Assembly: GCA_964016885.1 (NCBI GenBank)
Contig: OZ024758.1
Span: 6,820,001-6,884,000, forward strand
Source: Eledone cirrhosa
Taxonomy: Eukaryota
Length of the DNA stretch: 64,000 nucleotides
Direction: 5' to 3'
The notes beneath the pieces are model-generated. The model worked only from the letters and a program-made list of their open reading frames with translations, was not told the DNA's origin and made no database searches. The position numbers and the translations under genes are program-made. Positions 1 to 49,611 of the stretch are shown piece by piece; positions within the stretch are counted from its first letter, which is position 1; the number at the start of each line of letters is the position of its first letter.

Positions 1-202
1 CACACTGTAACGTGGTTGGCATTAGCAAGGGCATCCAGCCACAGAAACTAAGGCAAAAAATACTGTTCCATGTGAGCAAGATGTAGTGACCTGACATGTT
101 TCATAATGTGACAACCCATCTAACCCCACTCTCCAACTTTTACTACTCAGTTAATCTAAATAGAACAGATACAGAGAAAAATATCAAACCAAGACAACAG
201 AC

Positions 203-458
203 CTTCACTATTCCAGTTCATTTCTTGTTCAGCTCGATGAAGCTGCTGATCGATACTATTAAGTTTGTTGATAATAAGAGGAAACTCCACTGTAAGAGCT
301 GAAGTTCGGATATCATTGTACCAAAATACTGCTTGGTCAAGGTTTGTCACAAACTGATAGAAATCATCTTTTCTTGCATACAGTTCATTACTGCTGTCAG
401 GCATATTGGAAATGCCTCGAATCTCCATATATTTCACCTCTTTTAGGACTGATGTTAG
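203..458 (-). CDS. Dynein heavy chain exon 13 (LTSVLKEVKYME...MNWNSE)
   Basis: TTTCAG| acceptor, G|GTCTGT donor; 256 nt, phase 0/1. Confidence 0.9.
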
Positions 459-2607: not shown

Positions 2608-2645
<38 letters not shown>

Positions 2646-8600: not shown

Positions 8601-11600
8601 CACTCACCGGATCATTCCAGTCACAAGTATCATAAGTCTTTTCTTGGAATACATTGTACTGATTCTTGAATTCTACACAGATATCTTCAACTTGCTTTGT
8701 AAGATTCTTGCCAGTAATACCACCTATAACAATTTTCTCTAGTTTATTAAATTCATTAGATGTTTCTAAGAGTTTCTGAAAGAAAGAAAAGAAAAGTACA
8801 CATTAATTATTAAGTTTTATCTTCCAACTGTCGGTTGAAAGCAGACTTTAAACAGATTATAGTAGTAATTCACAAAAGATTTGGAAATATTTGCCTATAC
8901 TTATTTATTTTTTTCCCTAGTGAAATTTTATTTGTAAGTATAATAATATTACAAATAGAAAGAGAAAAAAGATAGGAAAGAAGAAAAGAAAAACTCACAC
9001 AAGCATGTAATACACACATCTAAGACCACATACAATGCAAGGCAGGTGAAAGGGGTGGACAAACAAACCGCAGCCAGAGCAAAAGATAACAATATGGCGA
9101 GGAGCACTGGGAAATCTCTCTAATAATATTTTAGGTAAACCAGCACACTCGTAAGGGTAAAACTTTAAAGCAGTGACTATGTCACTTACTTAGTTTCAGC
9201 AAAAGCAATGGGAAGCAACCGACGACCGTTTCTTGCTCATTTAGTGGTTGTCAAAATTACATATCCCTTCGCTTCTGCCAAGATTTATAGAAGCTGGATT
9301 CTTATAGAATTCCAGTGATGTTTAAGAGCTGATTAAACAGAGCAGTTTCCGGTCCAGCAAAAGTTAGGAATTAGTATTGGTGCTCTGAAATAGCGATGTA
9401 TATATGAATGTATGTATAGTATATTCAAAAATATTTTTTATAATTTTTAACTACCTTCAATAACAAAATTCTATGGAGAAATTTGTCTAATTTTTCTAAC
9501 ACTTCATCTCCACCAAACTGCCACATCTCAACGTCTTGATTTTCTGAGAAAAACGAGGGCACGTTCTCTTCAGCTTCATTATAGGCCTCTTTGTAATTTC
9601 TTAAAATCTTTTCTGTCTCAGCCACTTTCCACATATCTTCATCAGCTTCTCCTTTGAATAACTCGGTTGGCTCAAGATAAGCTCTTGCCTGGTTTTTACA
9701 AATATAGGTAAACAAGTTAAGATTTTAGTTTCTTAATATATACAGTAGGCTGTAACAGTAGGTAGGTATACAGGGGGCTGTAACAGTAGGTAGGTATACA
9801 GGGGGCTGTAACAGTAGGTAGGTATACAGTAGGCTGTAACAGTAGGTAGGTATACAGGGGGCTGTAACAGTAGGTAGGTATACAGGGGGCTGTAACAGTA
9901 GGTAGGTATACAGGGGGCTGTAACAGTAGGTAGATATACAGGGGGCTGTAACAGTAGGTAGATATACAGGGGGCTGTAACAGTAGGTAGGTATACAGGGG
10001 GCTATAACAGTAGGTAGGTATACAGGGGGCTGTAACAGTAGGTAGGTATACAGTAGGCTGTAACAGTAGGTAGGTATACAGGGGGCTGTAACAGTAGGTA
10101 GGTATACAGGGGGCTGTAACAGTAGGTAGGTATACAGGGGGCTGTAACAGTAGGTAGATATACAGGGGGCTGTAACAGTAGGTAGGTATACAGTAGGCTG
10201 TAACAGTAGGTAGGTATACAGGGGGCTATAACAGTAGGTAGGTATACAGGGGGCTGTAACAGTAGGTAGGTATACAGTAGGCTGTAACAGTAGGTAGGTA
10301 TACAGGGGGCTATAACAGTAGGTAGGTATACAGGGGGCTGTAACAGTAGGTAGATATACAGGGGGCTGTAACAGTAGGTAGGTATACAGGGGGCTATAAC
10401 AGTAGGTAGGTATACAGGGGGCTGTAACAGTAGGTAGATATACAGGGGGCTGTAACAGTAGGTAGGTATACAGGGGGCTGTAACAGTAGGTAGGTATACA
10501 GGGGGCTGTAACAGTAGGTAGGTATACAGGGGCTGTAACAGTAGGTAGGTATACAGGGGGCTGTAACAGTAGGTAGGTATACAGTAGGCTGTAACAGTAG
10601 GTAGGTATACAGGGGGCTGTAACAGTAGGTAGGTATACAGTAGGCTGTAACAGTAGGTAGATATACAGGGGGCTGTAACAGTAGGTAGGTATACAGGGGG
10701 CTGTAACAGTAGGTAGGTATACAGGGGGCTGTAACAGTAGGTAGGTATACAGAGGGTTAGTGTGGAAGATAGATGTTAATCGATGATGATGATGATTAAG
10801 ACTGTGTTGGTACAGACAAGTGATGCACATGGGTAATGATCTCTGGTTGAAGAAATGCCAGGAAATCTCAGTGGAATGAGGCTGTAGTAGTGGTAGACTA
10901 AGGAAGACCTTGGGGAGATGACGAAGGAATGTGGCGAATGGAGAGGTGCTGCACTGAAAACGACCTGTGCAACCAATGCAAGCATGGAAAAATGGACGTA
11001 AAAATGTTGATGATGATGATGGTGCGGGTGGTGATGATGGTGGTCATGTTGATGATGGTGGTGGTGGTGGTGGTGGTGGTGGTGGTCATGATGATGAGGA
11101 GGAGGGGGGTTAAAGTAATTAAAAGCCAATGTACCAAATTTATGATCAAATTAGATGTTTCTTTTAAGAGAATCTTCATCCGATAGGAAGTGCTGTAAAA
11201 TTTTGATTCGGCCCAGATTTTAGTAATGCTATCAAAGAGAACGGGAAAATGTCTGTCCAACTGAGGCCAACTTTCTACTGCCATCTCTTCATATATCATT
11301 TGTAGTGAAGATAAGTGACTGTGGATGACTTCAGCTTCATTTAAACCTGGAGGAGAAAAGAAAAAAATGAAGAAAAAAAAACAAAAGCAAAAACATAAAC
11401 ATCAAAGTATGACTTCTTCTTCTTGTGAATACACTTTCATTTATATTTATCTATTGTTATACTTTGGGAGGGTCATGTTGTTATACTTTGGGAGGGTCAT
11501 GTTCCCAACAAAAACACACGCACCTGTTGGTTTTTCCCTTCAATTTATTATAAATTTCCGATTGGCTGGTTGGTCGGTTGGTTCAATAACCGGAAGGTTG

Positions 11601-12021
11601 TTTATATGTTGTCAAAGCTCTTTCATCACACATTCTGTGACCTCCTCAGTGACTATGTTTTTATTTTGTGTGTCTCAATGTTCAAAAGTGGCCCGCCAAT
11701 GGAATATGTTGCACACCCCTGGTTTAGACTCTCCTATGATAGCCATATCAGAGGTACCTCGTGTAGGATGTGGCTCTTCATCACACTGGTCGGTCTTTGA
11801 ACTGAGAGAGACTAGGGGCTCAGCTTGAGTGAGCATAAATGCCATGTCATCAGTTTTCTGAGGGACATGTTGAACAGACACTGGGACAAACGGTGACGCC
11901 ACAATAGACCATCCAGTGTCAATAACACAACTTCACTAACGGTTTTAAGTGGTCATGTAATCCCAAGCAGACATGGAGACTGAGAGAAAGTCAGCAGCAT
12001 CTGGAAGGAAGGAGGGAGAGG

Positions 12022-12098
<77 letters not shown>

Positions 12099-15000
12099 TG
12101 TGAAATGTAAGATTTATGGAGATAAAGAAATGTTGAAACCTTTGAATCAACTTACCAGCAGCAACATCCATGAACATATTTTGAAAAGATTGGAAGTAAA
12201 TACTTTTTGTTACTCTTAATATGTCAGACATTTTCTTTACTTTTACTGTGTTCAACTACAATTACATAAAAATATAACACATTACTGATTTGAAAGCATG
12301 TGGAGGTGTGTGGCCTAGTGGTAAAGGTGTTGGTCTTACGATCATAATGTTGTGAGTTTGATTCCTGGATTGGGTTGTGTGTTGTGTTCTTGAGCAAAAC
12401 ACTTCATTTCATGTTGCTCCAGTGTACTCATCTGAAAATAAGTACCAGCAATAGCTGGGGGTTTAACCCTGCGATGGACTGGTGTCCTGTCCAGCAGGAA
12501 GTCTTGTACTCTCAGTCGCTTTACGCCAGGAAACCAGGATAAGCACTGGCTTGATAAGCCTTCTGTCTTAAGACAGACTGATTTGAAAGGAAGCATTAGT
12601 GTCCATTATTCTCTAATATACAAAAAGGTGCACAGCACAGAAGTCGATGGAAACCATGGAGTGGGGAGACCCAAGAAGACCTGGGATGAGGTGATAAAAG
12701 ACAACCTTACCCAATTGCACCTCTCAAAGGCGATAACACACGACCATGACCTCTGGCGTCACGCAGTAATACAGAAGGCCTGACTTCCCACGGGTACAAG
12801 CTGAAGCTGAAGTATACAGACAATATACGCCATCTTTCTTGGTCGTACTAATAGGGATATTTATTCATCATAGAAAACATTTAGAGGTAACAAAGGAGCT
12901 TCTTCACCAAATTACGCTCAATCATCTTAAAGAATTGAAGCATTGATTCTCTAAAAAAAATGGGATCACTAATGCTGGCATGTAGTATAGTTATTTTATG
13001 GAAATTTTGTTGGATCAGGGTTAACTGGAGATAGGCAACAACAAAGAAAAAGGGGGAAAAAACTGCCAAAAGTATATAAAGCAACCGATTCCAACAAAAG
13101 TTTTTAAAAGATATATTTGCTTTTACCTGTTCAAAAATACATCTTAGGTTTTGTGAGTGGTTTTTCCAAAACTCAAGTTCAACAAAAGGGAGAGAATTTT
13201 CATCATTAATGAAAATCTGTGCAGAGTCTTTCCTTAAGACTACACTAATCTGGCGAGACCATTCTATAATCACTGTTTCAATACAATGAATAAGTTGGTT
13301 ATCAGGTTGTGTGCTGTAAAAGAAGGAATAACAAGCAAATCACTCAAATAAGGTAAACGAATAAAGATATTAGGCATGTGGCCTAGTAGTAAGGAGGTAG
13401 GATTTACGATCATAATGGCGTGGGTTTGATTCTTGGACAGGGTTTTGTGTCATGTTCCTGAGCAAAAACATTTCATTTATTACTGTATAACCATGGGTTT
13501 ACTTGACCAGTAAAAACACTACAAACAACACAACACAACACTCTTTATTACAGCACCTATCGACAGTCGATCGGCTTTCGTCAAATTGGACCGAGGAAAC
13601 AATGTTTCCGTTGGTCTTTCCAATTGCTAATACTATCTATCGGTCGCAACTCCAGGTAGAAGGAGCAACGTGAAATAAAGTGTCTTGCTCAAGGACATAA
13701 CGCATCGCCCGGTCGAGGAATCGAACTGATAACCTCACGATTGCAAATCCAGTTCTCTAACCAATCAGCCACGTACCTCCACAGCACCTGTAAAGAATCT
13801 TATGATGAACAATATCTCACTTACTCAGAAATTTTCTCTATATCCACAAAATTAGGTGGAATAGGTAGAATTGTCTTTCCTAATATTTCACCCATACTCA
13901 GGTCAATATTTCTTTTCAAGTTATAAGAAGCTTGGATTATATCCTCAGATATAACTGATGTCCATGTTGTGTGATTTGCCTTATTTATGATAATAGGAAG
14001 CAAAACCTGAAAAAGGAAATATATACAAATATCAAAAACATTATATATTTACATCTCTGTGTGCGTATATCATCATCATCATCGTTTAACGTCCATCATC
14101 TACGCTAGCATGGGTTGGACGAGATTGTCCCACTTGAGGCAAGATTGGTCGGGTGACCGTGTCTCGCTCGTACAGGACTGTATCTGGCAGGTATCTATGG
14201 CTGGATGCTCTTCTTTAACACCAACTACATTTACAGTGTGGACTGGGAGTGTGGACTGGATGTTCTGTGGCACCAACATAACTTTACAGAGAAAGGGTGG
14301 TGTGGGTGGAAGTGGGAGGATAGAATAAAAATAACCAGGATTGAATTATATTAAATTATATAATTGATTGAACTGTCTTTTACCTATCTCGCTATGGACT
14401 ATAAAATCACATTTGAACGTTGAAATATTCTTTGCTTTTACATGGTTGTGTTATCAACTCATCTAGACTATTAATTCTATTCTATTATAAGTTGAGCCAA
14501 ATTATACAGCTTCATATGCAAATAAGATTAATCACCTCATTTACACAGATGGAAAAACAATATATTTTCACCTGTTTTCAAAGTCCAGCAGTTGCAAGAG
14601 CAGGAGAGATCGTCCTGACGAGAACCAGTTGAGTTTGAAACATATATATATAGGCAGAGCACTAAAAGTTGATGGAAGCCATGGAGTGGGGAGACCCAAG
14701 AAGAACTGGGATGAGGTGATAAAAGCAGACCTTGCCTAATTACACCTCTCAATGGTGACAAATCAGGACCGTGACCTCTGGCGTCACGCAGTAATACAGA
14801 AGACTGACTTCCCACAGGAACAAGCCAAAGCTGAGGCATATAAACAATATGCCCCCAACTGCAAAGTGCTCGTGGAGGTGTCACGACAAAAAAAGCACCC
14901 AGCCCACACTGTGAAGTGCTCTTATAGGTACCACGGAAAAAAAGCACCCAGCCCACACTGTAAAGTGGTCTTATAGGTACCACGGAAAAAAAGCACCCAG

Positions 15001-15414
15001 CACTCACTGTAAAGTGGTCTTATAGGTACCATAGAAAAAAAGCGCCCAGCCCACACTGTAAAGTGGTCTTATAGGTACCACGGAAAAAAAGCACCCAGCA
15101 CTCACTGTAAAGTGGTCTTATAGGTACCACGGAAAAAAAGCACCCAGCCCACACTGTAAAGTGGTCTTATAGGTACCACGGATAAAAAGCACCCAGCACT
15201 CACTGTAAAGTGGTCTTATAGGTACCACGGATAAAAAGCACCCAGCACTCACTGTAAATCAAGTTGGTGTTAGGAAGGGCATCCAGCTGTAGAAATCAAG
15301 CCAAAATCAGTTCCAGTATGAGCAAGACAAGGTCACCCGACCTAACATTGCCCACAACAGGACAACCCGTCTAACCCATGCTAACGTGGAAGAATGGACG
15401 TAAAACGGTGATGA

Positions 15415-15472
<58 letters not shown>

Positions 15473-16230
15473 GCTGACTAAAATTATAACTGACCTCATT
15501 ATACAAGACTGAGACATAAGCAAGAGGAGAGTAGCTGATATCACTACAAATATATGCATCAAGGAATGAATCATTCTCAGAAATTGCTTGCTCATTCTTT
15601 CTAATGAAGTAGCAGGATTTTGAGGTCACACTCGAAGGCCATTTATTCATAACCTGAAATAGAGAGTGAAAAAATATTATATGAATATATATATATATAC
15701 ATACATATATATGCACCCAGTACACACACACACTCTCATATATATATATATATATATATATACTACATTTATGTATGTACGTATACATACTTATATTTAT
15801 ATCTTTCTCACTCCCCTATTTCTCTTTATTTCTCTCTGTTTTTCTTTACATACATTTCTTCTTTTTCTCCGTCTTTATTTGTAACTGTGATTAACACTAA
15901 ATATCTATAAACACTTCACTACCAAACCAGCCTCCTACATTAATGGTCGCTATATTTATGGCACGTCAAAATTATTTATAAAACTGGTTATATATTGTAT
16001 TTTATCTGACGAAGGCATGCCATATTTTTAATATGGTATCCCTGAAATATGTATAATGAAATAAATATGGTTTTATAAATATAGTTTCCATTTGTTTAAT
16101 ATCGTATATTTATATATATATATATATTTATGGGTAGATTTATAGAATAACGAACCGATGTAAGGGACGTAATTTGGAAAAAAAAAAAAATTTTCGAAAT
16201 GAGTGCAAATAAAGACAAACACACACACAC

Positions 16231-16273
<43 letters not shown>

Positions 16274-16307
16274 CACACACACACACACATACACACACAC
16301 ACACACA

Positions 16308-16346
<39 letters not shown>

Positions 16347-17129
16347 GATTTCTACTATAGGCACAAGACCAGTAATTTGGCGGAAGGCGAAAGTCGATTA
16401 CTGGTACTTTATTTTATCGTACTTTATTTATTGTATATTTTTGTGTATTATATTTATAAGGTTCTAGGGCGGTGGATTGGCAGTATCGGTAGAGGGTCGG
16501 ACGCCATGCTTTACAGCATAGTTACGTCCCTTTACAATCTGAGTTCAAATCCCGCCGAGGTTGACTTTGCCTTTCATCCTTACGGGGTCGATAAAATAAA
16601 GTACCAGTAATGCACTGGGTAATTGCTGGCCTTGTGCCTAAAGTAGAAACAATTATATTTATAAGGTTCTTTTTCTTCTTCGCCCACTTATTCTTGAGAG
16701 GGTCGTGGTGGCAGAGTCCTCAAACACTGCTTCCAGCGGGTCCTGTCAAAAGCAACCGTCTCCAACTGATCCAGTTAGATCACCAAGTGAGACCAGCCAA
16801 GTTCCTGGATGTTATCCAATCTAGCTCGGGGTCTACCCCTGGGTTTCCTGCCGGTTGGTTTTGACCGTAAAATCTGTATTTATAAGGTCCCTAGCAATAA
16901 TAAATTGATGACATGTATGTACTTCGATTTAATCTTATATATTTATTAAATCTTATATATTTGTTAAATGATAATTTCATAGCTGTAGAAATGACATTTA
17001 CATGACATAGTCCCGTAACTCCCAACGGAGTGGTAGGGACACCATATTGATATACTGGGTTTCTAGGGTATCTTTTTAAAACCTAACGGAGCCCATTTAT
17101 TCTCCAGGTCTGAAAACAGCAGATTTCTT

Positions 17130-17186
<57 letters not shown>

Positions 17187-18057
17187 GAGAGCAAGAGAGA
17201 GATAGAAAGAGTGAGAGTATGGAAGTGAGAAAGAGATATAGAGGAAAAACATATCTCAGTACTAAACTGGTACTTTTTTTATCGATCTCGAAAGGATGGA
17301 AGGCAAAGTTGACGTCAGCGGGATTTGAACTCGGGGAGCAGAGAACCGAAATGAATACCTTAAAGTATTCTATCCGACGTTCTAACCACTCTACCATTCT
17401 ATCCGACATTCTAACCACTCTACCATTCTATCCGACGTTCTAACCACTCTACCATTCTATCCGACATTCTAACCACTCTACCATTCTATCCGACGTTCTA
17501 ACCACTCTACCATTCTATCCGACGTTCTAACCACTCTACCATTCTATCCGACGTTCTAACCACTCTACCATTCTATCCGACATTCTAACCACTCTACCAT
17601 TCTATCCGACATTCTAACCACTCTACCATTCTATCTGACGTTCTAACCACTCTACCATTCTATCTGACGTTCTAACCACTCTACCATTCTATCCGACATT
17701 CTAACCACTCTACCATTCTATCTGACGTTCTAACCACTCTACCAATTCGCCGCCTTAGAAATGACGTTAGGTTCCAGTTTATAATGTATGATATTATCGA
17801 AAGTATTCAACAAAAGAGAGGAGACACTTTAAGCTATGAAAATGACTTACCTGTAATGCGCCGGTTGATGTTAGGGAAAAAATTAACATACGAACTTCTG
17901 GGTTATTCAAAAATCTATTTATTAAATTCGCATTGGCTTCAATAGAGTACATTTTAATAAATTTATCTGATTTAGCATGTAATGTCATTAAGACATATTT
18001 TCCTAAAGACACAACACGGTTGTCTGGAATATCAGATAATTCATCGTCCAGCGACAT
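203..18057 (-). CDS. Axonemal outer-arm dynein heavy chain, beta type (DNAH9/DNAH11/DNAH17-like), 5' part: 13 coding exons encoding the N-terminal stem (DHC_N1); gene continues beyond the left edge
   Basis: 13 exons bounded by AG/GT with consistent phases (2284 nt). Motifs typical of beta DHC tails: IETVIIEWSRQI..VL, LPFVELEFW, KLEKIVIGG..G, DHRLATI..KAFDEC, LLERPLI, MPKVSGSLKWA, LVSVNFD..LTSVLKEVKY. Confidence 0.92.
816..1074. repeat. 29-bp minisatellite, about 9 copies
   Basis: Unit CCAAAGTGAAACTGGTGTAATATTCCCCT. Confidence 0.9.
1225..1351 (-). CDS. Dynein heavy chain exon 12 (FEKSCYKKW...VSVNFDLE)
   Basis: TTTCAG| acceptor, GAG|GTAAGT donor; 127 nt, phase 2/0. Confidence 0.92.
1868..2062 (+). 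mobile_element. RTE-clade LINE apurinic endonuclease fragment
   Basis: LAGDFNGH..G...G.HGG.GYG.RNEEG.RLLEFC....L.ICNT.FKK motif. Confidence 0.8.
2532..2641 (+). mobile_element. CR1-like LINE 3' tail with (ATT)n terminus
   Basis: Matches 52168-52266 and the reverse of 4083-4170; ends in an (ATT)n microsatellite. Confidence 0.7.
2851..3170. repeat. AT-rich about 21-bp tandem repeat
   Basis: Unit TAATTGCTATATTGCTATATA. Confidence 0.9.
3267..3335 (-). CDS. Dynein heavy chain exon 11 (CVEDEDARIIYDRYENLIGRLT); not in the ORF track
   Basis: TTTCAG| acceptor, GG|GTGAGT donor; 69 nt, phase 2/2, bridges exons 10 and 12. Confidence 0.88.
3829..4058. mobile_element. TTAA-flanked (piggyBac-type) MITE; similar element at 21477-21734
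   Basis: TTAACCCTTT...AAAGGGTTAA termini. Confidence 0.55.
4083..4632 (-). mobile_element. 3' end of a CR1-like LINE, with an internal 61-bp unit tandemly repeated about 4 times (about 4258-4500)
   Basis: Minus-strand NTRGHAYKV...HFF...WNKLPA motif typical of CR1 ORF2 C-terminus; the same 3' UTR occurs at 2532-2641 and about 52090-52266. Confidence 0.75.
4545..5630. repeat. Local tandem duplication (about 4545-5010 and 5110-5550) plus about 75-80-bp units that include the exon-10 donor
   Basis: Near-identical blocks, e.g. CAACAGCATTAGTGAAGAAACCTTAAAAATATCCCCAAC twice. Confidence 0.85.
5634..5899 (-). CDS. Dynein heavy chain exon 10 (VVEMMVNLLERPLI...KSLHH)
   Basis: TTTCAG| acceptor, AG|GTAAGG donor; 266 nt, phase 0/2. 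Confidence 0.92.
5930..6125. mobile_element. Mariner-type MITE; further copies about 39948-40277 and 56451-56657
   Basis: TACGAGG..(C)GC.GA.AAGTTCATAGGCTGAC ... GTCAGCCTATGAACT.TTCAGC.AACCCT.GTA inverted termini with terminal TA. Confidence 0.75.
6138..6430. mobile_element. hAT/Charlie-like MITE with an internal about 32-bp tandem repeat (6167-6318)
   Basis: CAGGCATG.CAAA left end; GGGCCGGATGTGGCCC...GACATGC right end. Confidence 0.5.
7174..7290 (-). CDS. Dynein heavy chain exon 9 (EFMDDYNTFRKK...DGYLK)
   Basis: TTGTAG| acceptor, AAG|GTAGTA donor; 117 nt, phase 0/0. Confidence 0.92.
7360..7780 (+). mobile_element. Two head-to-tail copies of SINE family A
   Basis: Both carry the A-box, GAGTTCAAATCCCGCC B-box and core. 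Confidence 0.85.
8341..8592. repeat. Degenerate 45-55-bp tandem repeat next to the dynein exon 8 donor
   Basis: Repeated CACAAACCTGCTCAAGCAGAG.CAAAC...AAACCTCTTGGTACCCC. Confidence 0.85.
8608..8775 (-). CDS. Dynein heavy chain exon 8 (KLLETSNEFNKLEKIVIGGITG...DWNDP); not in the ORF track
   Basis: TTTCAG| acceptor, CCG|GTGAGT donor; 168 nt open, phase 0/0. Confidence 0.92.
9455..9688 (-). CDS. Dynein heavy chain exon 7 (ARAYLEPTELFKGE...HRILLLK)
   Basis: ACCAG| acceptor (weak pyrimidine tract), AAG|GTAGTT donor; 234 nt, phase 0/0. Confidence 0.9.
9741..10752. repeat. 28-bp minisatellite, about 36 copies
   Basis: Unit TACAGGGGGCTGTAACAGTAGGTAGGTA; explains the spurious 365-aa ORF. Confidence 0.97.
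11135..11346 (-). CDS. Dynein heavy chain exon 6 (LNEAEVIHSHL...ETSNLIINL)
   Basis: CTCCAG| acceptor, TTG|GTACAT donor; 212 nt, phase 1/0. Confidence 0.88.
12156..12255 (-). CDS. Dynein heavy chain exon 5 (LNTVKVKKMSDIL...DVAA)
   Basis: TGTAG| acceptor, G|GTAAGT donor; 100 nt, phase 0/1. Confidence 0.9.
12303..12580 (+). mobile_element. tRNA-derived SINE family B (representative copy). Other copies about 3476-3730, 7925-8180, 13373-13480, 13640-13780 (-), 35825-35960 (-), 37480-37610 (-), 60820-60965 (-), 63930-64000 (-)
   Basis: Head GTGGCCTAGTGGTAA.G with B-box-like GTTTGATTCC; core GTGTTCTTGAGCAAAACACTTCATTTCA. Confidence 0.8.
13127..13313 (-). CDS. Dynein heavy chain exon 4 (TQPDNQLIHCIETVIIEWSRQI...CIFEQ)
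   Basis: TTTACAG| acceptor, CAG|GTAAAA donor; 187 nt, phase 2/0; start of DHC_N1. Confidence 0.92.
13825..14006 (-). CDS. Dynein heavy chain exon 3 (VLLPIIINKANH...GKTILPIP...EKIS)
   Basis: TTTCAG| acceptor, GA|GTAAGT donor; 182 nt, phase 0/2; G.T.LP.P motif. Confidence 0.88.
14655..15418 (+). mobile_element. RTE-type LINE 3' end (GVGRPK..WDEVIK) with internal 49-bp minisatellite and (GAT)n tail; related ends at about 12625-12830 and 59425-60078
   Basis: GRP.KTW.E motif; tail TTAGGAAGGGCATCCAGC...CCCATGCTAGC.TGGAA.A.GGACGTTAAACGATGATG recurs more than 15 times in the window. Confidence 0.75.
14885..15258. repeat. 49-bp minisatellite, about 8 copies
   Basis: Unit AAAAAAAGCACCCAGCCCACACTGTAAAGTGGTCTTATAGGTACCACGG. 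Confidence 0.95.
15495..15653 (-). CDS. Dynein heavy chain exon 2 (VMNKWPSSVTSKSCYFIRK...VLYNE)
   Basis: TTTCAG| acceptor, GAG|GTCAGT donor; 159 nt, phase 0/0. Confidence 0.85.
16468..16655 (+). mobile_element. tRNA-derived SINE family A (representative copy). Other copies about 7360-7550, 7560-7780, 17255-17390, 18450-18625, 18735-18935, 21865-22225, 28835-28965, 30595-30685, 32065-32230, 34955-35112, 51455-51630, 62085-62240, 63070-63235
   Basis: A-box-like TGGCAGTATCGG, B-box GAGTTCAAATC, conserved core GACTTTGCCTTTCATCCTTACGGGGTCGATAAAATAAAGTACCAG, in many dispersed copies. Confidence 0.85.
17367..17745. repeat. 29-bp minisatellite inside a SINE head, about 13 copies
   Basis: Unit ATTCTATCCGACGTTCTAACCACTCTACC. 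Confidence 0.95.
17851..18057 (-). CDS. Dynein heavy chain coding exon 1 (MSLDDELSDIPDNRV...LTSTGALQ)
   Basis: ATG at 18057; donor CAG|GTAAGT; 207 nt, ends phase 0. TTTAG just upstream of the ATG could be an acceptor for a 5' UTR exon. Confidence 0.8.
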
Positions 18058-19243
18058 GATTGCTAAATAAATCTTTGACCGTTTCACTGGCGTTTGCTAT
18101 ATTTCACAATATAAGAACGCGTAAAATCTTCAACAGTTTTCGGGCGGAATAAAGATATTTATATATAATATAAATTTTTTATACGATACCCCAAACATTT
18201 CTTTTTAATTTTGACAGTAAAATAACAAAATAATTAGTTAATAAAGATTTTATTTTGTTTTTTCTTTTTCATAATTTTGTGTTTCATTTTCTTTCTGGAA
18301 ATGCGGCGTTTCAAACCAATTTAAAGTAACAAAAACAAAAAAAAAAAGACATTCTCTCTCCTTTCCTCTCTCCCCTTCTCTTCTCCTCTCTCCCCGTCTC
18401 TCTTATATACACATACGCCCTTTTTTCTATGTATTTTATTATAATTATTTCTACTTTTGGCACAAGGCCAGCAATAACCCAGTGTATTACTGGTACTTTA
18501 TTTTATCGACCCCGTAAGGATGAAAGGCAAAGTTAACCTCGGCGGCATTTGAACTCAGATCATACAGGGAGGTAACTCTATGCTTCAAAGCATGGCGTCC
18601 GACCATCTACCGATACTGCCAATCTTATTTTATTTTATTATTTTCGATAAAATAAAGTACCAGTAATGTACTGGTTATTTGCTAGCCTTGTGCCTAAAGT
18701 AGAAACAATTATTTTATTATAATGGTCTCTAATATAAGCAAAAGGCCAGCAATTTTGGGAAATGGAGAAAGTCAATTAAATCGAACCTAGTGCGTGACTG
18801 GTACTTTATTTTATCGACCCCGTATGGATGAAAGGCAAAGTTAATCTCGGCCGGATTTGAACTCAGATCATAAAGGGCCGTAACTCTATGCTGCAAAGCA
18901 TGGTGTCCGACCCTCTACATATACTGCCAATCCACGGGACTTCTGTGTTTTATTATACGACTAGCTGGTCCCGTACCGTCAAAAATGACGGCTAAAGGGT
19001 AGAGGTGTATTTGTATATACCTTTCAACTACGGTCGTTTTATATTCTTGATAATTCTAATGTATTTCGATATTGTTAGGGACTTGGCTCCTTGAACAACA
19101 CATACATACAAACATTCACACACACATACACAGACTCAGAGAAAATAATCAGTACATGCACACACATATGTGTGTGATTGTGTGTGTGTATTTATATATG
19201 AGTAACACAGGTGTAGCGAACACTGTTCTCTGTTTTCTATAGT

Positions 19244-20435
19244 TTGTCACAGCCCCCTTCCTTCCACACTCATCACATAGATGTGTGTATGACATTGGAT
19301 TCTATTACAACTATGGAATTTACACCTGCAATGCTGCGACGTCACCTTAAAAATAAACACAACCATGCCTCTCCTGGTCTTGATGGTGTTACGTACCTGC
19401 TTCTCAAACGTGGTGGGTACTTCCTTCTGCACCAGCTTTCACACTTCTTCCAATTCTGTCTAAACAACAGTGATACTCCGGAGCAGTGGAAAACTGCCAG
19501 TGTCATTCCTCTGTTCAAAATGTGTGACCGCACATCACCTGTCAACTATCATCCAGTCAGTCTTACTAGCTGCATTGTCAAACTGATGGAATCCTGTGTC
19601 AGAGAAACACTTTGGAACTTCTGGAACTCTCACAGTCTTATCCAGCCCTCGCAATTTGGATTTATCCCTAACTCCAGCTGCTTATCGAGTTTCTTGAAGA
19701 CATCACCCGGATCACTGATGACGGCTCATTGGTGGATGTTGTTTACCTTGACTTTGCTAAAGATTTCAATTCTGTGCCACACAAAAGACTCATGGCAAAA
19801 CTTTCTGCAATGGGTGTGAAGGATGATCTTTTTAACTGGTTGAAGTCTTTCACTCTCAGTCGAAGAGAGGTAGTCACGGTTCTAGGACAGCATTCGTCAC
19901 TGTATGAGATGTCATCTGGTATACCCTTTTGTTTGTGGCAGAGATGCCAACTTAAAGAATGCCACACTACTGAAATATGCAGATGACATCAAGCTGTACC
20001 TTGAGATAAAAAGGTCAGATGCTGAACACTATAAATCTTTCCTGCAATCTGACCTGGACACAATGCAACAATGGATCACAGACTGTCAACTCAAGCTAGC
20101 TGTGGACAAGTGTACCACCATGCATTTTGGGAGTAAAAACCCAGCGTCCACATACTCCCTCCACAACACTAATATCAAGAAGTCTTCTTGTGAACGTGAC
20201 CTGGGCATTACTGTCAGCAGCGATTTGCGTTGGACGAAGCATGTCTCTAAAATTGTCAAGAAGGCCGAGGGTGTCTTAGCATCCCTCAGCAAGACCTTTG
20301 TCAGCCGCTCTCCAGCTATCTACTCAAAGCTGTAAATAGCTATGGTGCATCACCAGTCTGGAACCCCTATCTTGCTCTGAACATTGACCTGGAAACTGTT
20401 CAGGGACGTGCAACCAAGTGAATACTCTCCATCAG
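19244..20435 (+). mobile_element. Decayed CR1/L2-clade LINE ORF2 reverse transcriptase fragment
   Basis: Three frameshifted ORFs: SPGLDG, WK.A.V.P..K, NY.PVSLTS...KLME, QFGF, DVVYLDF.K.F..VPH, YADD, ERDLG; the PQGS.LGP motif is deleted. Confidence 0.9.
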
Positions 20436-20845
20436 CTGAAAGAATCGCTGCTTTCACCCTATTACATAATTGGGTGAAAGCAACAATTCTTTTCTTAAAC
20501 TTTAATCTGTACTAATAATAAATATTTGCCATTTGGATTTATATATACTTTTTTATTATATATATATGTGAATGTATGTATAGTATATTTGGCAATATAC
20601 CGTATGTTTAATTAAAAACATTTAGAAGACCATACACTATCAGTTTTAAAGTAGTGGCTATGTCACTTACTTCTTTTTGTCAAAAGAAGGGAGAGAAGCT
20701 AACAGTCTTCACGCTGTTTGGCGATCATCAGAGCCACATATTCCCCTGCTTTCAACGAAAATTATAGAAGCGGTATATTGCCAAATATACTATACATACA
20801 TTCATGAACACCAATCTATTTCAGAGCACCAATCCTAATACCTAA

Positions 20846-21061
20846 ATCACATCTGACATGGAAGATTTAAGCAATGCTTTGTATATGGATCATGTACCAG
20901 GAGGCTGGGCTCGACGTGCATATCCATCATTATATAATCTGACTGCTTGGTATGCAGATCTAATCCAGCGTGTTAAAGAACTAGAAACCTGGGTTTCTGA
21001 TTTTCAGCTCCCAGCTGCAGCCTGGTTGGCTGGATTCTTTAATCCACAATCTTTTCTCACC
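20846..21061 (+). pseudogene. Isolated fragment of a beta-type dynein heavy chain C-terminal domain (ITSDMEDLSNALYMDHVP...WLAGFFNPQSFLT)
   Basis: 72 stop-free codons with W.RRAYPS, KELE.W and W..GFFNPQSFLT motifs of the DHC C-terminus; in-frame TAA immediately before; no splice signals at the homology edges; flanked by repeat remnants. Confidence 0.8.
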
Positions 21062-22888
21062 CCCCAAAAAACGATGGTAAAATAGGGGGAGGAGTTGGTT
21101 TATATTTGAGTATATACAGTAAATAAAACAGCAACAAAGATCAGAAAAAACATAACATTTTTTTTTTATTTGAGCAGTTTTAAAGTTCAGTGATATTTTA
21201 CATTAAATCCTCTCATTGCAAGCAAAACCATTCATATCTTCCGAAAAATTAAAATGTACAGTTTTTCACTTTTTTTGTGAAGAAAAATCATATTACACAC
21301 ACACACACATGCACAAACACACACATGCATGCACACATACACACACACAGACTGAACATAGGTACATATTTTTGGAATTGTTGAAAGCACTTAAATCTAC
21401 AACTGAAAAATTGGTTGTACTTAAAAAAATTTTGAATAATAGATATAACCCTTGCATAATTTTGAATACAGTAGTATTAACCCTTAAGGTACCAAATGCC
21501 CTGAAACTGCCGTTGCTATCATACAAAAACTGTTTGTTTATAAAATGTTTATATTTATCTAAAAACCTTCCATTATAATTTTATGTAACAAATTAAATTA
21601 TGTTTCAAACAGCAGCACAATAACAAAGTTAATATAATTAAATCTCTCACAATCCTTGATTACTTCCAAAATGATTTTTTTTTTTAAATTATAGGCAGTG
21701 TTGTCATTAGAAAATATGGCAACAAAAGGGTTAAGACAACTATCCTGGAAAGTATACCCGTAAATCCATAAATACCAAAATTAAGCAGATACAAATTTCA
21801 TGGAAAGTTGACTTAAGTTTCTAATTCTAGTTATGCAACTTAATTATGTTATATTGAATTCTAATTTAGGCACAAAGCCAGCAAATCTTGAGAGAAGGGC
21901 AAATTTGATTAAACCAACCTCAATACTCCACTGGTACTTCATTTTACCAACCCCGGAAGGATAAAAGGCAAAGTTGACCTCGGCAGGATTTGAACTCAAA
22001 CATTAAGAGCCAGAATAAATAACACAATGGCATTTTAAGTAATAAGCTGTCAATTCTGCCAATCCCCCACTCTGGTCATACTGATACTTTATTTTATCAA
22101 CCCCAGAAGGATAAAAGGCAAAGTTGACCTTGGCGGGATTTGAACTCAAAACATTAAGAGCCAGAATAAATACCACAATGGCATTTTAAACAATGGGCTA
22201 TCAATTCTGCCAATCCGCCACTCTGGTCATATTAATGATTTTCATGTAGCTCTTAAATTAGAGTGAATATAACTTTAAAAAATAAAAATTATTTTCCTTA
22301 TATTTTTTTTGTTTTCAAATATAAAACCCACTAAACAAGAGGTTTACGTGCATTCAACCATCTAGTATCAAATTAGAAAAAAAAAGTCCTCTAGTAATCA
22401 TGAAGGAAGACTCAATATATTAATATTTACATGCTAACACTGCAAAATAGCCAAACCTATACGTTTCATTTCATTAAAATAATTATCACTTGATGTAAAA
22501 GGAAAATCTGAGGAATGAGGAATCATAAACTTAATAAAATATTTCAATGTCAAGGAAATTATAAATCTTTAACCATGATTTATGTTTATCTTTATCTTTT
22601 TTAGATTCTATTCCAGTGTTCCATTAACTTTAAATTAACTCTTCATTAAACAACTACCCATCAATCATTAATTAAAATAAATGCTGTAAAATAATTAAAA
22701 AAAGAAAATTATGAATACTTTAAGCAATTGTTTTAAAATCCTAACACATAGTGATGAAAATGTAAGGGTGCAATTATTAAAACCAATTTTAGACTATAAA
22801 GAGAAGTTATACTTACATGAATCTGAAATGAGATAATGTGAACACAATTTTTAAAAACAAAAAACATGTCTTTTTTTTTTTAGTGGTA

Positions 22889-23955
22889 TCATAATTCTGT
22901 TTTGGTGTTTTGTTTATGACTATTCAATTCATCTTCTTCACTAGTTAAACCTAAATCACTTTTAATGTCTTCTGTATGAGAATGTTTTTGTAAATACTTG
23001 TTTGCTACTAAAATATTTTCAGGGTGAATGTGTGTTTGTGTTTGAGACTGTGTTTCAGGAATGTTGTCATTTTCATGTGATTTAGATTCTATTTTTTCAG
23101 AAAGTAATTTCCTATTGAGATCTTCATTTTTAACTTCACTACTATCGTCCCTATTTTGTACATCACCCCCTTCCAATTTGTCAACACTATGGTGTTTTCC
23201 TTCCTTTATTGTTACTAACCAATTGTCATCTGAATTAGCTTCATTTGGTTTATTTTTACAATTATCATTATCAAATAATTCTTCTTCCTGAGAATTTTCT
23301 TTAGATGTAGAATGTAAACCTTTTTCTTCTTTCAAATTTGTCTCAGTTTCAAGGGCATCACTTTGCCCCTGCACTTCTTTCACAATAATAAGCTCAAAAG
23401 CTAATTCATCAAGTAAGTTTTTATCCTCGGAATTTATATTTCCTGAGTCAAAATAAGCAGATTCCAAAATCTTTGCAAGAGCCCTCAAATACGGACCCTG
23501 TTGTTCAAGCTGGGGGAAATTTGTATGGTCTCTCAAAAATGTAACTAAATCAACATAGATCTTATTCAATTTTGGCTCATTATTCACCGGGTTAATTTTA
23601 GAGAGATGCAGAAAATAAAAGCTTAGCTGTTTGGTACCATCTGGGAGCAAATTGAGTTGAATTGGTTCAAAATTCATATCATTTGGCGCCGATGAACTAT
23701 CACTGAAACTTTTTATGCTAATCTCCATGTTAACATTATCAGAGCCAACTTTAATAAAATAACCACCAGATCCATCTCTAATAGACATTTTTTTATGGAT
23801 AGGGGGCATTCTGTTATTGGTTGGTTGGTACAATAAACCAGCAGATGTTGCTGGTGTTTGGAAAGTTTTCATGTACTGAAATGCCTTTTTTTGTTTGTTA
23901 GAACCTAAAGTTGATGTTTCTTTTTTGTATTCTTCTGTAGGTGTTTTACTTTGAC
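22889..23955 (-). CDS. EDEM3: EDEM3 terminal exon, about 355 codons, ends ...NTKTEL*
   Basis: TTGTAG| acceptor in phase 1; long open frame; TGA at 22891-22889; KDEL-like ER-retrieval signal as expected for EDEM3. Confidence 0.9.
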
Positions 23956-25436
23956 CTACAAAATATAGTAAAAACCAATCAGACACATGAATAAATTACA
24001 AATTAATACAATAACAAGAAACAGAAATACTGTTGCTATTGTTAGGAAGGGCATCCAGCCGTAGAAAACCTGCCAGATAGTCCTATATGAGCGAGACACA
24101 GCCACCCAACCAATCTTGCCTCAAGTGGGACAATTCCCATCTAACCCATGCTAGCGTGGAAGATAGACATTAAACGATGATGATGATTGTTTCCTTCATT
24201 AACCCAGCTCAACAATGTAACAAAACAAATCTCATTTAAAACTTTCACACCATTTTTAAGCCCTAAAACTTGTGAAAACATGGAACATGGTTAAGAAATC
24301 TATTTAAAGAGAGTTGATGAGAAACATTCAGCAACATCTCACACAGACATCAATCTAAAATAGAGAATCATCATCCTCGTTGTTTAACAACCTTTTTTTT
24401 TTTACATGGTTTCTACAGTTGGTAGCCCTTCCTATCACCAACCATTTTATTTATATAATCATCACCATTTAACGTCCATGTTTCCATGCTGGCATGGGTT
24501 AGACGAGTTACCTGTTGTGAGCAGGTCAAGTAGTCATGTCTTGCTCATACAGAACCAATTTTGGGTTAGTTTCTACTGGATGTCCTGCCTAGCTCCAACC
24601 GCATTTACAGTACTTTTTGCCCTGACACTTACACAACCACTTTACAGTGTGGGCTGAGCGCTTTTTGTTGTGTCACCATCACAACCACTTTACAGTGTGG
24701 GCTGAGCGTTTTTTGTTGTGTCACCATCACAACCACTTTACAGTGTGGGCTGAGCGTTTTTTGTTGTCACCATCACAACCACTTTACAGTGTGGGCTGAG
24801 CGTTTTTTGTCGCATCAGCATCACAACCACTTTACAGTGTGGGCTGAGCACTTTTTGTTGTGTCACCATCACAACCACTTTACAGTGTGGGCTGAGCACT
24901 TTTTGTTGTGTCACCATCACAACCACTTTACAGTGTGGGCTGAGCACTTTTTGTTGTGTCACCATCACAACCACTTTACAGTGTGGGCTGAGCACTTTTT
25001 GTTGTCACCATCACAACCACTTTACAGTGTGGGCTGAGCGCTTTTTGTTGTGTCACCATCACAACCACTTTACAGTGTGGGCTGAGCACTTTTTGTTGTG
25101 TCACCATCACAACCACTTTACAGTGTGGGCTGAGCGCTTTTTGTTGTCACCATCACAACCACTTTACAGTGTGGGCTGAGCGTTTTTTGTCGCATCAGCA
25201 TCACAACCACTTTACAGTGTGGGCTGAGCGCTTTTTGTTGTGTCACCATCACAACCACTTTACAGTGTGGGCTGAGCGCTTTTTGTTGTGTCACCATCAC
25301 AACCACTTTACGCCCTGTGGCTAGACATATTGTCTTTGATGCGTCGAAAATTCTGAGACCCACAACAGACAAGTGAAGAATGGATCTGACCTTTATTTGT
25401 GTTTTCCTTATATTTCTAAACACTCGTTATATATAT

Positions 25437-25476
<40 letters not shown>

Positions 25477-28400
25477 TAAATAACAGATTAAAGTTTAAGC
25501 AAAGAATCGCTGCTTTCACCCATAACTGAATGATTTTTTTAGTTTCAGAAGACCCCGTTAAGGGTGAAAGCAGTGACTCTTTGCTTAAACTTTAATCTGT
25601 TATTTTAATAAATATTTGCTCTAGGGTTCTTATATATTTGATATATATTTATCCTTATCGAGCCCTCTTTGGATTTTAGTCTTCACATTTATTATTATTA
25701 CTATATATATATATATTCTTCATTAGGGGACTAATTGAAACAGAATTAATTCTGTAAACTAGTCACATAATAAAAACCAATACAATGTTACTCTACTTGC
25801 TGAAGCAGTGACTATTTAGTATTTAAGTTTAGCTATTACAAACAAATACACAGGTATATACACAGACATAAATAAATATCTAAAATACAAACCTGAAGAT
25901 CTTGAGTCAAGAGCCAACACTACTTCCAAACTGTAATTCTCACTGAGTGCTTTCAATAGCTTTTGCCCTTCTTTGTGGAAAAGAAATACCAATGGGATAC
26001 TGACATCACGTTGACCATCACCAGACATTGCAAACAGTGGAGATGATTCACTGCTTGTACCTTCATTATGATCTACAACCACATTTAATAGATTGTAAAG
26101 TATTTTATTATTATTCAATATGAAATAATGAAATACAGTAAATTCTAATTATGTTAGTAAATACATTTAGCACTCAATGAACAGGGAGACCTTTCAAGAC
26201 TAGAGCTTTCCATACGAAGTAGTATACAGATTAGAATCAAGCCCATGTTTCCATCTTCTCTCAAGCAGTCATTTACCATATATATCCAAATATAAGTCGA
26301 CTCCCTATTTTATGCCTGAGAAATAGACAAAAATCTAAACCCTGTTTATAAACCAAGGCAGGTAATCAACACATGTTTATATGGTGTGGTTTTGAAATTC
26401 TCATGAGTGAAGAATATATTTATGAAAATGATTTGAAACTCATAATCAATATCTTTTATTAGATATCATCATCATCATTTTTACATCCATTTTTCCACAC
26501 TTACATGGGTTGGACAGGTCCTTTTCATAAAAAGGGTTTCAGAATGAAGAACTGACAGCAAACTAATTATTTTTCTTGCAATATATTTTCTTTTAAAGAA
26601 AACATTTTAACTTTTAATCATATGAACTTCATTTAAACTATGGTTAGATAAATGTCACTACACTTGATAAAACCTACATTTTCATAAGGTAATTAGTTGA
26701 GGAGAGAAAATGCTCAAAACATTTACGTGTGTTCCCAGGCTGGTCAGATTAATGTTAGTGGAGGAAAACAAAAGATTTGTACAAATCTTTGTACCTAAAA
26801 GCACCAAAGGACAAAGTATTTTTTCACCCAACAATCATCACCCATATGTATTACATGTTCATACCAGCACAACCTCCTCTCCTGCATGTTACATCTGATT
26901 CCTCTTATATACAGTTTTCTCTCACCTCATCCATGCTGTCATTGATGAACACTAAACATTTCACACCCAACGGAGCCTGTACAACTCCTTTCTCTCCAGC
27001 CTTTATATATCTTTTACATTTACTGTCCTTGCCTCACTACTATGCAACTTTGTACACAGGCATCATACAATCCATCCTTTGCTTGGAAAGAAAATGCCTT
27101 TGTTGTCAACAATGGTAGTAGCTCCTTGAACATTTTTCACCCTGTTTTATTCTAGCTACTATCTTTCCTTCATTGTTAATTAGGCCACACAGATAAGAGA
27201 AGCTATCAACTACTTCTATGGAACCTTTGTTGGATTTGAAAATGTTTATTTCATAGGTGCTCTTACTACCAACTAGTCTAGTGCACTGCCACATACAAAG
27301 TCTACTGTCTCTGTTTCTCTGCCTGCAATCCTACCACACCACTTGGGTATTTATATTTTACACTGTGTACACCATATGGAAGTTTTTACTTATTTCTTGT
27401 CTGTATATTGAGCATAGTCAATTGTCTTGTCAACTTTGCTACTTACTAAAACTTTGTCTGTATTCTTACTCTAATAATCTTTGATCTCACCTTTTGAACT
27501 GCAATAACAGACAACCATTGATCACAGTCTGTAGTCAAATTGTCTATTGTTACTCTAATAATCTTTGGTCTAACCTTTCAAGGCTCCATTTTAACACTAT
27601 TAGACATTCTATTCAATATTTGAAGAAGAAAACATCTATATGCTCAACTTTCAACATCAGAAAAGAAAGAATATGGGAAAATAATATGCAGAAGGTGGTT
27701 CAAGCATATGTGATAATGTTGAAAATATTAAGGTTACTGGGAGTGTGATAATGTTGAAAATATTAAGGTTACTGACAAAATACTCACCAATCACAATGCC
27801 ACCTACTGCACCGGCCATTTCCACATTAGTTGCCTAAAATAAAAAATGTAAACAGAAAAGTTTTTAGACAAACATTCTAAGGAAAATATTGTTATATATA
27901 TTTGAAATATTGTTATATGTATAACATTGTATGTTTCAAATATTGTTATATGTATAACATTGTTATATGTATAACATTGTATATGTTTGAAATATGCTTT
28001 TATGTACAATAAAACAATATGTTTCAAATATTGTTATATGAAACTATTCAACCATGTTCCTCATTGTTATCCACTTTCACTTTCTCCATAGCAAATTTCT
28101 ACAGCCAGATTGCTTTCTTGCCGCCAACCTGAACTTTTCTGAATGCTAAAGGTTGACTAACTTAACAGTATTTTGAATGTGAAGATGTGTATGCAAACAC
28201 ACACACACAAACGACAGGCTTCCAAAGATTTCCATCAACTGAATTCACTCAAAGAATTGGTGAACCGAAGGTTATGGCAATACAGAGAGATTCTCCACCA
28301 AAGCAGAATAATTGATCCATGTTAGGTTACGTTTAAAGTCTGTCACAAATCCAGAGGCTCATCATACTACAACTTATCTCGGATTCATTGGAGTTATGTG

Positions 28401-31400
28401 ACTGAAAGCTCAAGACTCCCTTCTGGAGGAGATGCCCATCTTTCTCAGGCTTACCCCCCACTCTTCAGTCCTGAGCAATGTGAAATGAACCCAATGTGCC
28501 ACTTGGTGTAGGATTCAAACCCACACCATTATGATCATAAGCCAAACAACCTGACCACTGAGCCACAATTTATCTATGTGTCACAATGTTGATTCTGTAA
28601 AAATATATCTCTATAACTTGTTAAGATAAATATGATATACTCAATGTGTTATGAAGAGTATAGCACTGTAACTCCTGACGGGGTTTGTAGAGCGCTGTAT
28701 TGACATAGAGCATTTTTAGGGCATTTTCAAACCTGGCAGAGCCCATCCCCTCCCTTGGTCGGGATACAGCAGGTTTCTTCCAGAGAAGGATAGAAAGTGA
28801 GGAAGTGAGAAAGAGACAGAGGAAGAATGGACTGGACTGGTACTTTTTTACTGATCTCGAATGGATGAAAGGCAAAGTTGACCTTGGTGGGATTAGAACT
28901 CAGCAGAAAGCCAGAATATCACAAAGAATTCTATCCGACGTTCTAATGACTCTGCCAATTTGTCACACTAGTATAGATTTTAGCCACATGTAAATAAGCT
29001 AAGAAGGTTTTAATTAGAATTATGATGTATTATGAGTTGAATATCACAATAAATATGTTCATAAATGGTATTAATATTATGTTTTTTTATTTGACAATCA
29101 ACAACTAAACAACCCTCTGGTTATTAAAATAATCCACTGGGAAATTATAATAAATTGAAGTGAAACCCAACAAGTGCATATGTTTTTTATTGGCAACGTG
29201 ACCCTCCCAAAGTATAAAAATCTTAATATTACCTTTTCAATAAACATGCATTCACCTCTTTCTAGGATAGCAATGTTTCCTTTGATATGTCTTGTATTAG
29301 TGAGAGGTGTACAAGCTTTGTACGGCTCAGCAATCATCAACTGGCCTTGGATCTAATTAAAATAATTCAGAAATATGATTAAAGAACAGTGTTGTCATAA
29401 AAATAGTATTTTAACCATGGAATTACTTCCTTCTTATTCCACTAGATTTTAATTTCCACTAATTCAAATAAAAGTAGGGCTACTTGTGTATGTAATGATA
29501 ATGAGCCACAAGAAATACTGCAAGGTATCACACACAATGCTCTAATAATTCTGTCAATTCACCCTCCTGATGATGGATTCTCCACTGATTTCAATAATAA
29601 GCATTCTGTTGTTCTATCAACTGAACGTCCACCTCCAGAATCAAACACTTAAGGAAATATATAAATTCAAAAGAAATTATGTATTTCATGGTTATTTATA
29701 AATTTCCAACAAGTTCATAGATTTCAAAATAACCGTGGGACTTCTAGGGGTCCTGCAAGTAATTCAAGAACTCCTAGTTTTCAAAATAACCATGTGACTT
29801 CTATAATTTCCTTAAATTTATAAACAAAAATATAAGAAGTGGGATACTGTCAGAAACCAGTAGTTTGCAATGACACTGTAATAATCACATGAAAGTGGAA
29901 TATAAATATCTTCCACTTCTTTACTATATCAAAATAGTTTAGCTAAAACTTTAAACTTCTATTTTTAATTGTGACTTAATTTTTACAAAGAAAACTATTT
30001 ATAATCTGACTTTCTTAAGGTAATCATTAATTCATTCTACCTATATTAGGTTCATAACTATAATGAAAATAATAGTAAAATTTCAACAAAGGCAGATAGT
30101 GTATATGAATATTGCAGCTTTCACCCAATTATGTAATAGGGTGAAAGCAGCGATTCTTTGCTTAAACTGTATATATTAAACTGTATATATTTGAATAAAG
30201 TTATAAACACGTACATATATAGTAAAGTAAAAGAACATGATTTATTTACTTACTGGTGAGGAATTCTTGAGGTTGTAACCAAACTGAGCAGGTCCAGCAC
30301 TCAAAACTGAGACATCATCACTACTAGGTGACAAGATCTGCACAAGAAGTGGCTCGTGTTGAGCTAAAGAAAATCAACAGTTTAACTACTGAAACAAAAA
30401 AGTTCAATATGTGACATTTACCTACACATGTACAATACTTTCTTTTGGAGTGAGGTAAAGATGTTTACGCTGCATAACTACTTAACGATTGTCTGAAGAA
30501 GGATTGTGACTGACAACGTTGTGTACCATATTGTAATCATACCCAAACATTATCTTGTAATAAAAATGCTGATTGTTATATATTATAAAAACTCACTCGA
30601 TTAAATCAACCCCAGTGCATTACTGGTACTTTATTGATCCCATGAGGATGAAAGGCAAAGCTAACCCTGGCGGGATTTGAATTACAATAAATAATGACCA
30701 GTGACAATAGTTTTAATAATAATGAGAATGTTAAATATAAACATATTAAATATAAACAGGCCGTCCTGTAGTCCTAGAGAGGAGAGTCAGTTCTCATCCC
30801 TTGATTACTGAGAAAACAAGATAGAAATGGAACTTTTTCAAAGCTTGTACTAAGACTGGGGACAAGGTGATTTTAATACCTGCTTTTATGGCAAGTTTAT
30901 GCAGGTGTTTATGCCCACCACCTCCAACTTTCATTACATGCAATTGAAAAAAATCTGCATTATTTGATGGATGACCCAATAGATTATGTTTGAGAGAAAC
31001 TAAACTGAATACCCGGGTAGTATACAGGAAGACTGATGTATACTTTCTTCTGTTATGGCAGACGATGCCAGAGACTAACCATAACTCCAGACACATTAAG
31101 TATGGTCCCCTAAGACTGAGCTGCCAATGATGATGGGTGATAAGTATGATGTGTATTATAATGTTAAAGAAAAGAAGATGTTTAATCTGTTAAAAGTTAA
31201 CAATCATATATACTTGAATATAAGCCGAGGAATGTGTGACCAATAAATCGATGGTAAAATGGAGGAGGGGGGCTTATATGCACCTTCTAAACAATGGGTT
31301 GATTAACTACCTCAGTTTATAAACGATGTTTGGACTTTCACCAATTTCTCAGACATAAAATAGGGTGGTCGACTTATATTCAAGTACAGTGGAACCTCAG

Positions 31401-45180: not shown

Positions 45181-45222
<42 letters not shown>

Positions 45223-49479: not shown

Positions 49480-49535
<56 letters not shown>

Positions 49536-49571: not shown

Positions 49572-49611
<40 letters not shown>

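Follow-up and report, generated by a model that had tools for sequence, protein, structure and literature searches.

The window examined here, a stretch of 64,000 nucleotides of Eledone cirrhosa DNA (contig OZ024758.1, positions 6,820,001 to 6,884,000 of the forward strand), holds exons 1 to 12 of a dynein heavy chain gene with 1.2 kb of its upstream DNA (1..19298, minus strand), a block of repeats, a short dynein fragment on the plus strand (20845-21060) and an EDEM3 gene on the minus strand (22889..57206; GH47 mannosidase with a PA domain) that stands tail-to-tail with the fragment. Genome DNA search, Pfam and pairwise comparison identify the fragment as a third, truncated copy of a dynein last exon. 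In the parent, a beta-type outer-arm dynein heavy chain gene, the last coding exon measures 618 nt; the fragment corresponds to its nucleotides 12-227 and is identical at 215 of 216 bases to each of two full last exons, the single substitution (window 20901) changing Val to Gly. It has neither an in-frame acceptor nor a stop of its own. The sequence-only reading had described 72 stop-free codons at 20846-21061 with a dynein C-terminal match, and both statements were borne out: translation gives the residues it quoted, and these cover positions 100-171 of the 309 of the Pfam Dynein_C profile (E 3.8e-24). The in-frame TAA that it placed before the fragment sits at 20843-20845, the dynein start that it put about 2.8 kb away is a minus-strand ATG at 18057 (2.79 kb), and the whole 64-kb window indeed holds no further plus-strand dynein match. 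Its limits were roughly right, except that homology to the parent covers 20845-21060 and base 21061 is already foreign. A possible peptide gene, a frame of 75 codons that opens with the ATG at 20858, was discarded for want of promoter or splice support.

The fragment had also been called an orphan, which it is not. At distances of 80 and 88 kb on its left are two complete parent exons, and the genome search with the 216 nt that had been proposed as a check returned three candidates, all of which match: the fragment itself and two copies on opposite strands, all within 88 kb on the same scaffold. Directly left of the fragment is a tail-to-tail palindrome with arms of about 80 kb that contains the full dynein gene twice. 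Self-comparison of 264 kb, with no N anywhere and hence no gap, places the colinear arms at 6,675,898-6,753,877 (plus) and 6,839,298-6,759,480 (minus). The right arm extends to about 60.5 kb beyond the window start on the left and ends at window 19298, which is 1.2 kb upstream of the ATG of the inverted copy. The arms differ by 0.93% substitutions over 48,992 aligned non-tandem bases, and at 32 of the 34 joins in the alignment chain they differ by at least 100 bases.

Both dynein copies could be modeled as open genes of 57 exons and 13,308 nt, encoding 4,435 residues with one terminal stop and no frameshift; one GC donor is common to both, and both 618-nt last exons are complete and end in a stop. 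The exon chain was built with a profile of 20 homologues and is the same in the two arms. Splice sites were chosen independently in each arm and yielded equal exon lengths, with exons 1-3 and three junctions placed by hand. The first coding exon of the inverted copy is at 17851..18057 (minus strand), in a stretch with two matches in the genome. The copies differ at 93 of the 13,308 bases and are thus about 99% identical. They show 57 amino-acid differences, 33 of them within residues 1-1300. Their pN/pS of 0.46 is below neutral (P 0.0005), with 0.57 in residues 1-1400 versus 0.32 beyond. Hexamers resembling poly(A) signals occur 28 and 45 bases past the stop in each copy. Along the left arm, 6,714,948-6,716,423 shows no difference from the right arm over 1,209 aligned non-coding bases (P 0.002 against random placement) and may possibly be a tract of gene conversion between the arms. 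Upstream of that arm, two plus-strand frames (L022:1385-1790 and L022:2605-2940), one of them His/Lys-rich, resemble exons of an unnamed gene.

Class 4-beta outer-arm heavy chains comprise DHC4, or DNAH9, 11 and 17 (Kollmar, 2016; PMC5100056), and under that scheme both parent genes are class 4-beta axonemal dynein heavy chains. The last-exon protein is 93% identical to the Octopus vulgaris “dynein beta chain, ciliary-like” and about 69-75% identical to vertebrate DNAH9/17 entries. It groups with the O. vulgaris protein (support 100/96) in a tree of 14 rows drawn without any other dynein class. Both models have P-loops at residues 1818, 2099 and 2426, matches to the DHC_N1 and Dynein_C domains were obtained, and the 4,435 aa compare with about 4,450 aa expected for the class. 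An older beta-type paralogue is located 6.9 Mb away on the same scaffold (13,670,385-13,688,693). Its last exon is 85% identical, and over 18 exon pieces matched in its 3' part the identity is 64-91%. It falls in one group with the young pair and O. vulgaris and is therefore probably an octopod-level duplicate. Three full or apparently full genes of the class stand on one scaffold here. The sequence-only reading had allowed a paralogue as the source of the fragment. This is excluded, because the older paralogue matches 158 of 216 bases versus 215 for the adjacent gene. In O. vulgaris, two adjacent dynein accessions proved to be splice forms of one gene, and EDEM3 is on a different record (694 kb) from the dynein accessions.

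The EDEM3 gene was recognized by 20 tblastn matches to Octopus sinensis EDEM3, one of them weak, and by its PA domain (E 2e-4). Its last coding exon (22889..23956, minus strand) is 74% identical to the O. sinensis protein and finishes in an ER-retention-like KTEL; the exon has a single match in the genome and has been lost from both copies in the palindrome centre. A frame at 22889-23995 that could have been taken for a dynein start was rejected, being this EDEM3 exon. Other parts of the EDEM3 3' region are present more than once. The penultimate exon with its flanks (25702..26426, minus strand) occurs three times over 25702-26001 and twice over 26002-26426, and two more exons with their introns (28928..30666, minus strand) are duplicated in direct orientation in the centre. 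The spacer at 21649..22096 (plus strand) recurs beyond the final exon of the inverted dynein copy, with 9 substitutions in 441 aligned bases. The 5.6-kb centre (6,753,877-6,759,480) accommodates these pieces in two sets. The right dynein copy is followed by inverted pieces of window 21649-22096, 25307-25452 and 25702-26426, and the left copy by direct pieces of window 25687-26001, 28928-30116 and 30111-30666. Since pieces of the EDEM3 3' region stand behind both full copies, the same DNA trails all three last exons, each with its own deletions. The tail behind the left copy lacks the last EDEM3 exon and breaks inside the preceding one, through two separate deletions, which gives it the look of a dead duplicate rather than a living allele. 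Dead EDEM3 exon pieces are seen in both orientations in the centre (L007:4154-6807 and L007:7568-9425). At least six SINE pieces, also in both orientations, cluster at the turning point.

Both edges of the fragment run into repeats. On the left lies half of an abundant fold-back element of about 560 bp (20560..20845; 2212 candidates in the genome, 40 of them scored), a full copy of which measures 563 bp (L025). The sequence-only reading had noted this fold-back correctly, its inverted arms at 20569-20613 and 20760-20804 being 91% complementary, but what is present is only the left half, namely the first 286 bases, cut mid-element with 1 bp of microhomology to the exon at 20845. The element has nested inverted repeats and (TA)n flanks and was matched to no named family (L025, L026). 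On the right, the MITE terminus that had been described is there, as a MITE-like end at about 21063-21121. Comparison with L029-L031 assigns 21061..21121 to the right end of a MITE-like repeat that is unrelated to the left flank and for which all 25 scored candidates matched, the window copy included. At the right join this repeat is cut just inside its left terminus, with 2 bp of microhomology and a lengthened C run. Only repeats occupy 19298-20845, where 1.5 kb of LINE and MITE separates the arm end from the fragment: a broken LINE reverse-transcriptase fragment (19299..20438, plus strand; RVT_1 hits in each of three frames with E values from 1.7e-6 to 1.1e-3, none of which reaches the curated cut-off) and a short hairpin repeat (20439..20567) whose family recurs at 25.4-25.7 kb, at 30.1 kb and in the palindrome centre. 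Both fragment ends look like random deletions, and joins into the interior of two unrelated elements argue for deletions and against the capture of cargo.

The layout in the assembly can be written with three segments, where A is the dynein body, B its last exon plus the EDEM3 tail, and C the next EDEM3 piece. The order is A B C, followed by B and A in inverted orientation and finally by B C and onward DNA, which gives two copies of A, three of B and two of C and a profile of 1-2-3-2-1. Within the 264 kb, no long second match was found for DNA upstream of the palindrome; exon 1 has two matches, and some parts of the triplicated zone, the EDEM3 last exon among them, have returned to single copy. 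The three last exons read plus, minus and plus at 6753022, 6760335 and 6840845, so that the middle copy is inverted. Distances between copies are 0-1/216 for the last exon, 3/300, 4/282 and 5/282, 0/425, 9/441 and 5/549, plus 21/1185 in a comparison where many changes sit at a SINE edge. These similar distances between all pairs of copies fit one event. We regard the fragment, with good confidence, as the third copy of the dynein last exon and probably a scar, no longer functional, of the second junction in a local duplication-inverted triplication-duplication. The earlier suggestion of an inversion-derived piece of this same gene is thereby supported by the matches, the palindrome layout and the comparison between copies. 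The ancestral order was likely dynein (plus), spacer, EDEM3 (minus). Both full copies are trailed by pieces of the EDEM3 3' end, the same DNA that comes after the fragment, so the fragment likely stands at the original place of the gene, beside EDEM3.

We infer template switching as the mechanism. A replication fork would have passed through the dynein gene and entered the EDEM3 3' end as far as about window 30.7 kb. After a template switch there, copying would have run backwards over the EDEM3 tail and all of the dynein gene, reaching 1.2 kb beyond the dynein start. A second switch, at or before the last exon, would have returned the fork to the forward strand and led on into an intact EDEM3. 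The third dynein copy may have started at the last exon or may once have been longer. Later deletions would have trimmed all three overlap copies, and two of these, each ending in a small repeat, would have left the 216 bases seen today. The copying of about 80 kb back-to-front likely also explains the two adjacent complete copies that are 99% identical. The join at 20845, with its 1 bp of microhomology, may be a later deletion instead of an original switch. The original junctions have been overwritten by later repeats and deletions, with the SINE cluster filling the turning point. A search for an inverted repeat partner in the third copy found none, the six SINE matches in window 20.4-33 kb being all in one orientation.

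The proposed structure resembles haplotype 3 of human DUP-TRP/INV-DUP, described as “triplication and initial duplication inverted” and attributed to two template switches (Grochowski et al., 2024; PMC11293582). As in that haplotype, copies run 1-2-3-2-1, the triplicated segment and the first duplication are inverted and the last duplication is direct. A further likeness to the cases described there is that a whole gene gains an inverted copy. The 1-2 bp of microhomology at the present joins recall junction 2 of the human cases, although the join at 20845 may be a later deletion. The human cases in that report are fresh patient alleles begun at large inverted low-copy repeats. In contrast, the octopod locus is about 1% diverged, eroded by deletions and insertions, and has no inverted repeat pair left. 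By the account of Brewer et al. (2024; PMC10766186), a first junction within an inverted repeat pair is frequent but not universal in such rearrangements. Their ODIRA model derives these structures from an inverted triplication with palindromic junctions that are later eroded. The locus agrees with what ODIRA, as presented there, predicts: an inverted middle copy and palindromic junctions widened by secondary deletions, frequently at SINEs or with scant microhomology. That model starts from short inverted repeats and a nearby replication origin. On this reading the fragment is a scar of a known kind of rearrangement with an ordinary mechanism.

The sequence-only reading had considered capture by a transposon or retrocopying, and repeats do abut both edges of the fragment while a LINE fragment lies 0.4 kb away. 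It is nevertheless scarcely credible that a DNA transposon (by Pack-MULE-like capture) or reverse transcription of dynein mRNA brought the fragment here. The flanking repeats belong to two different families, each cut internally and not at a terminus, whereas a Pack-type element would enclose the fragment between both termini of one element. The fragment lies inside one exon and spans no exon junction, the feature by which a retrocopy was to be recognized, and it has neither a poly(A) tail nor a target-site duplication. Moreover, its intergenic and intronic neighbours were duplicated with it, non-coding DNA from 0.6 to 9.6 kb to the right appearing in the order expected behind the parent exon.

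Another alternative starts from staggered breaks, which left inverted duplications at the breakpoints of 17 of 29 Drosophila inversions (Ranz et al., 2007; PMC1885836). Here, an inversion of a single dynein gene would have produced an inverted duplication of about 5.6 kb at the right breakpoint, of which the fragment would be the scar, and the left arm would be the other haplotype, misassembled in line, so that each chromosome would carry one dynein gene. We consider this combination, and with it an artefactual left arm derived from the second haplotype, unlikely. Like the breakpoints in that Drosophila work, the locus contains dead gene fragments in opposite orientation. The Drosophila duplications, however, span 46 bp to at most about 1.9 kb by the same account, and the inverted segment there is single copy, while the 80-kb inverted segment of the present locus also has a direct copy.

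Placing the left arm on the other haplotype is in line with the arms differing by about 1% and by at least 100 bases at nearly all alignment joins. Two octopus haplotypes could be some 1% diverged. Nevertheless, such a haplotype would have to carry an EDEM3 allele wrecked by two separate deletions, and no gap interrupts the 264 kb. DNA searches of the genome revealed no third full copy and no haplotig. The pN/pS given above is also more easily reconciled with young paralogues than with alleles of a conserved motor, although this is a weak argument. If the assembly is base-true, three copies are impossible from two alleles of a single-copy locus, and at least the inverted duplication of about 5.6 kb that contains the fragment must then be within one haplotype. 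Even under staggered breaks the fragment would still be a rearrangement scar.

The assembly is the source of the palindrome layout, the copy numbers, the sequences at the junctions and both open gene models. Five of eight listed sequencing runs, from two studies, contain part of window 20700-24000, with no RNA run listed among them. Four of the eight runs were compared over 17790-21280, where repeats swamp the results (up to 201,683 records) and, among the listed pieces, none crosses 20845 or 21061; run X1 has a hole in its middle, which by itself proves nothing. A contig of that run over 17838-18465 has the left-arm letters at 17929 and 17938, the two arm differences displayed of six expected there; as contigs drop variants, this favours neither reading. 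Contig depths of about 12-14 over exon 1 and about 6 over 21183-21280 are not copy numbers and fit both the duplication and the haplotype readings. The RAD run X6 has no depth in the bin 20949-21065. In run X5 (organism B), a 950-base contig matches 20852-21060 with 16 differences and continues on both sides.

In its present state the fragment is most likely junk, and we infer that it has lost its function. The sequence-only reading had raised antisense pairing with dynein mRNA, but had overlooked the palindrome and the position of the fragment behind the 3' end of minus-strand EDEM3, which would be the only obvious source of antisense RNA. The fragment lies 1.83 kb past the EDEM3 stop on the other strand, and its complementarity to each of the dynein copies is 99.5%, so that EDEM3 read-through RNA could in principle pair with the mRNAs of both, and the scar could have been kept for this reason. 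We see this as a remote prospect: two AATAAA motifs on the EDEM3 strand (22088 and 21165) precede the fragment, its near-identity is predicted by its age with no need for selection, and its ends have the random look noted above. A broader proposal would have the DUP-TRP/INV-DUP established in the octopod germ line, with an intact, palindrome-held pair of outer-arm dynein beta genes whose tails are already diverging. Read-through over the 6-kb centre, or out of EDEM3 and across the fragment, would then produce long double-stranded RNA, and its editing or dicing would buffer the doubled dose of dynein. As a whole this appears very unlikely.

The value of the fragment is that it marks a whole-gene inverted duplication that is invisible in the 64-kb window. 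DUP-TRP/INV-DUP is known mainly from human disease alleles, and titles and abstract openings of the literature on octopus dynein duplication and cephalopod inverted duplication yielded no publication on this locus. If reads confirm the layout, it would represent a naturally aged duplication-inverted triplication-duplication with the later erosion that ODIRA predicts. It would also offer a young pair of ciliary motors, each of 4,435 aa, whose early steps of divergence could be traced. Automated annotation may mistake the fragment or the dead EDEM3 pieces for genes, or may collapse the dynein copies into one.

Two further elements were observed in the neighbourhood. Within a large EDEM3 intron, on the opposite strand, an intronless frame of 309 codons (window 49671-50600, plus strand) reads by eye like a rhodopsin-type G-protein-coupled receptor. 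To the right of the window, at 6,899,410-6,901,313 (L015:5410-7313), 88-bp tandem units are 100% identical over about 1.9 kb.
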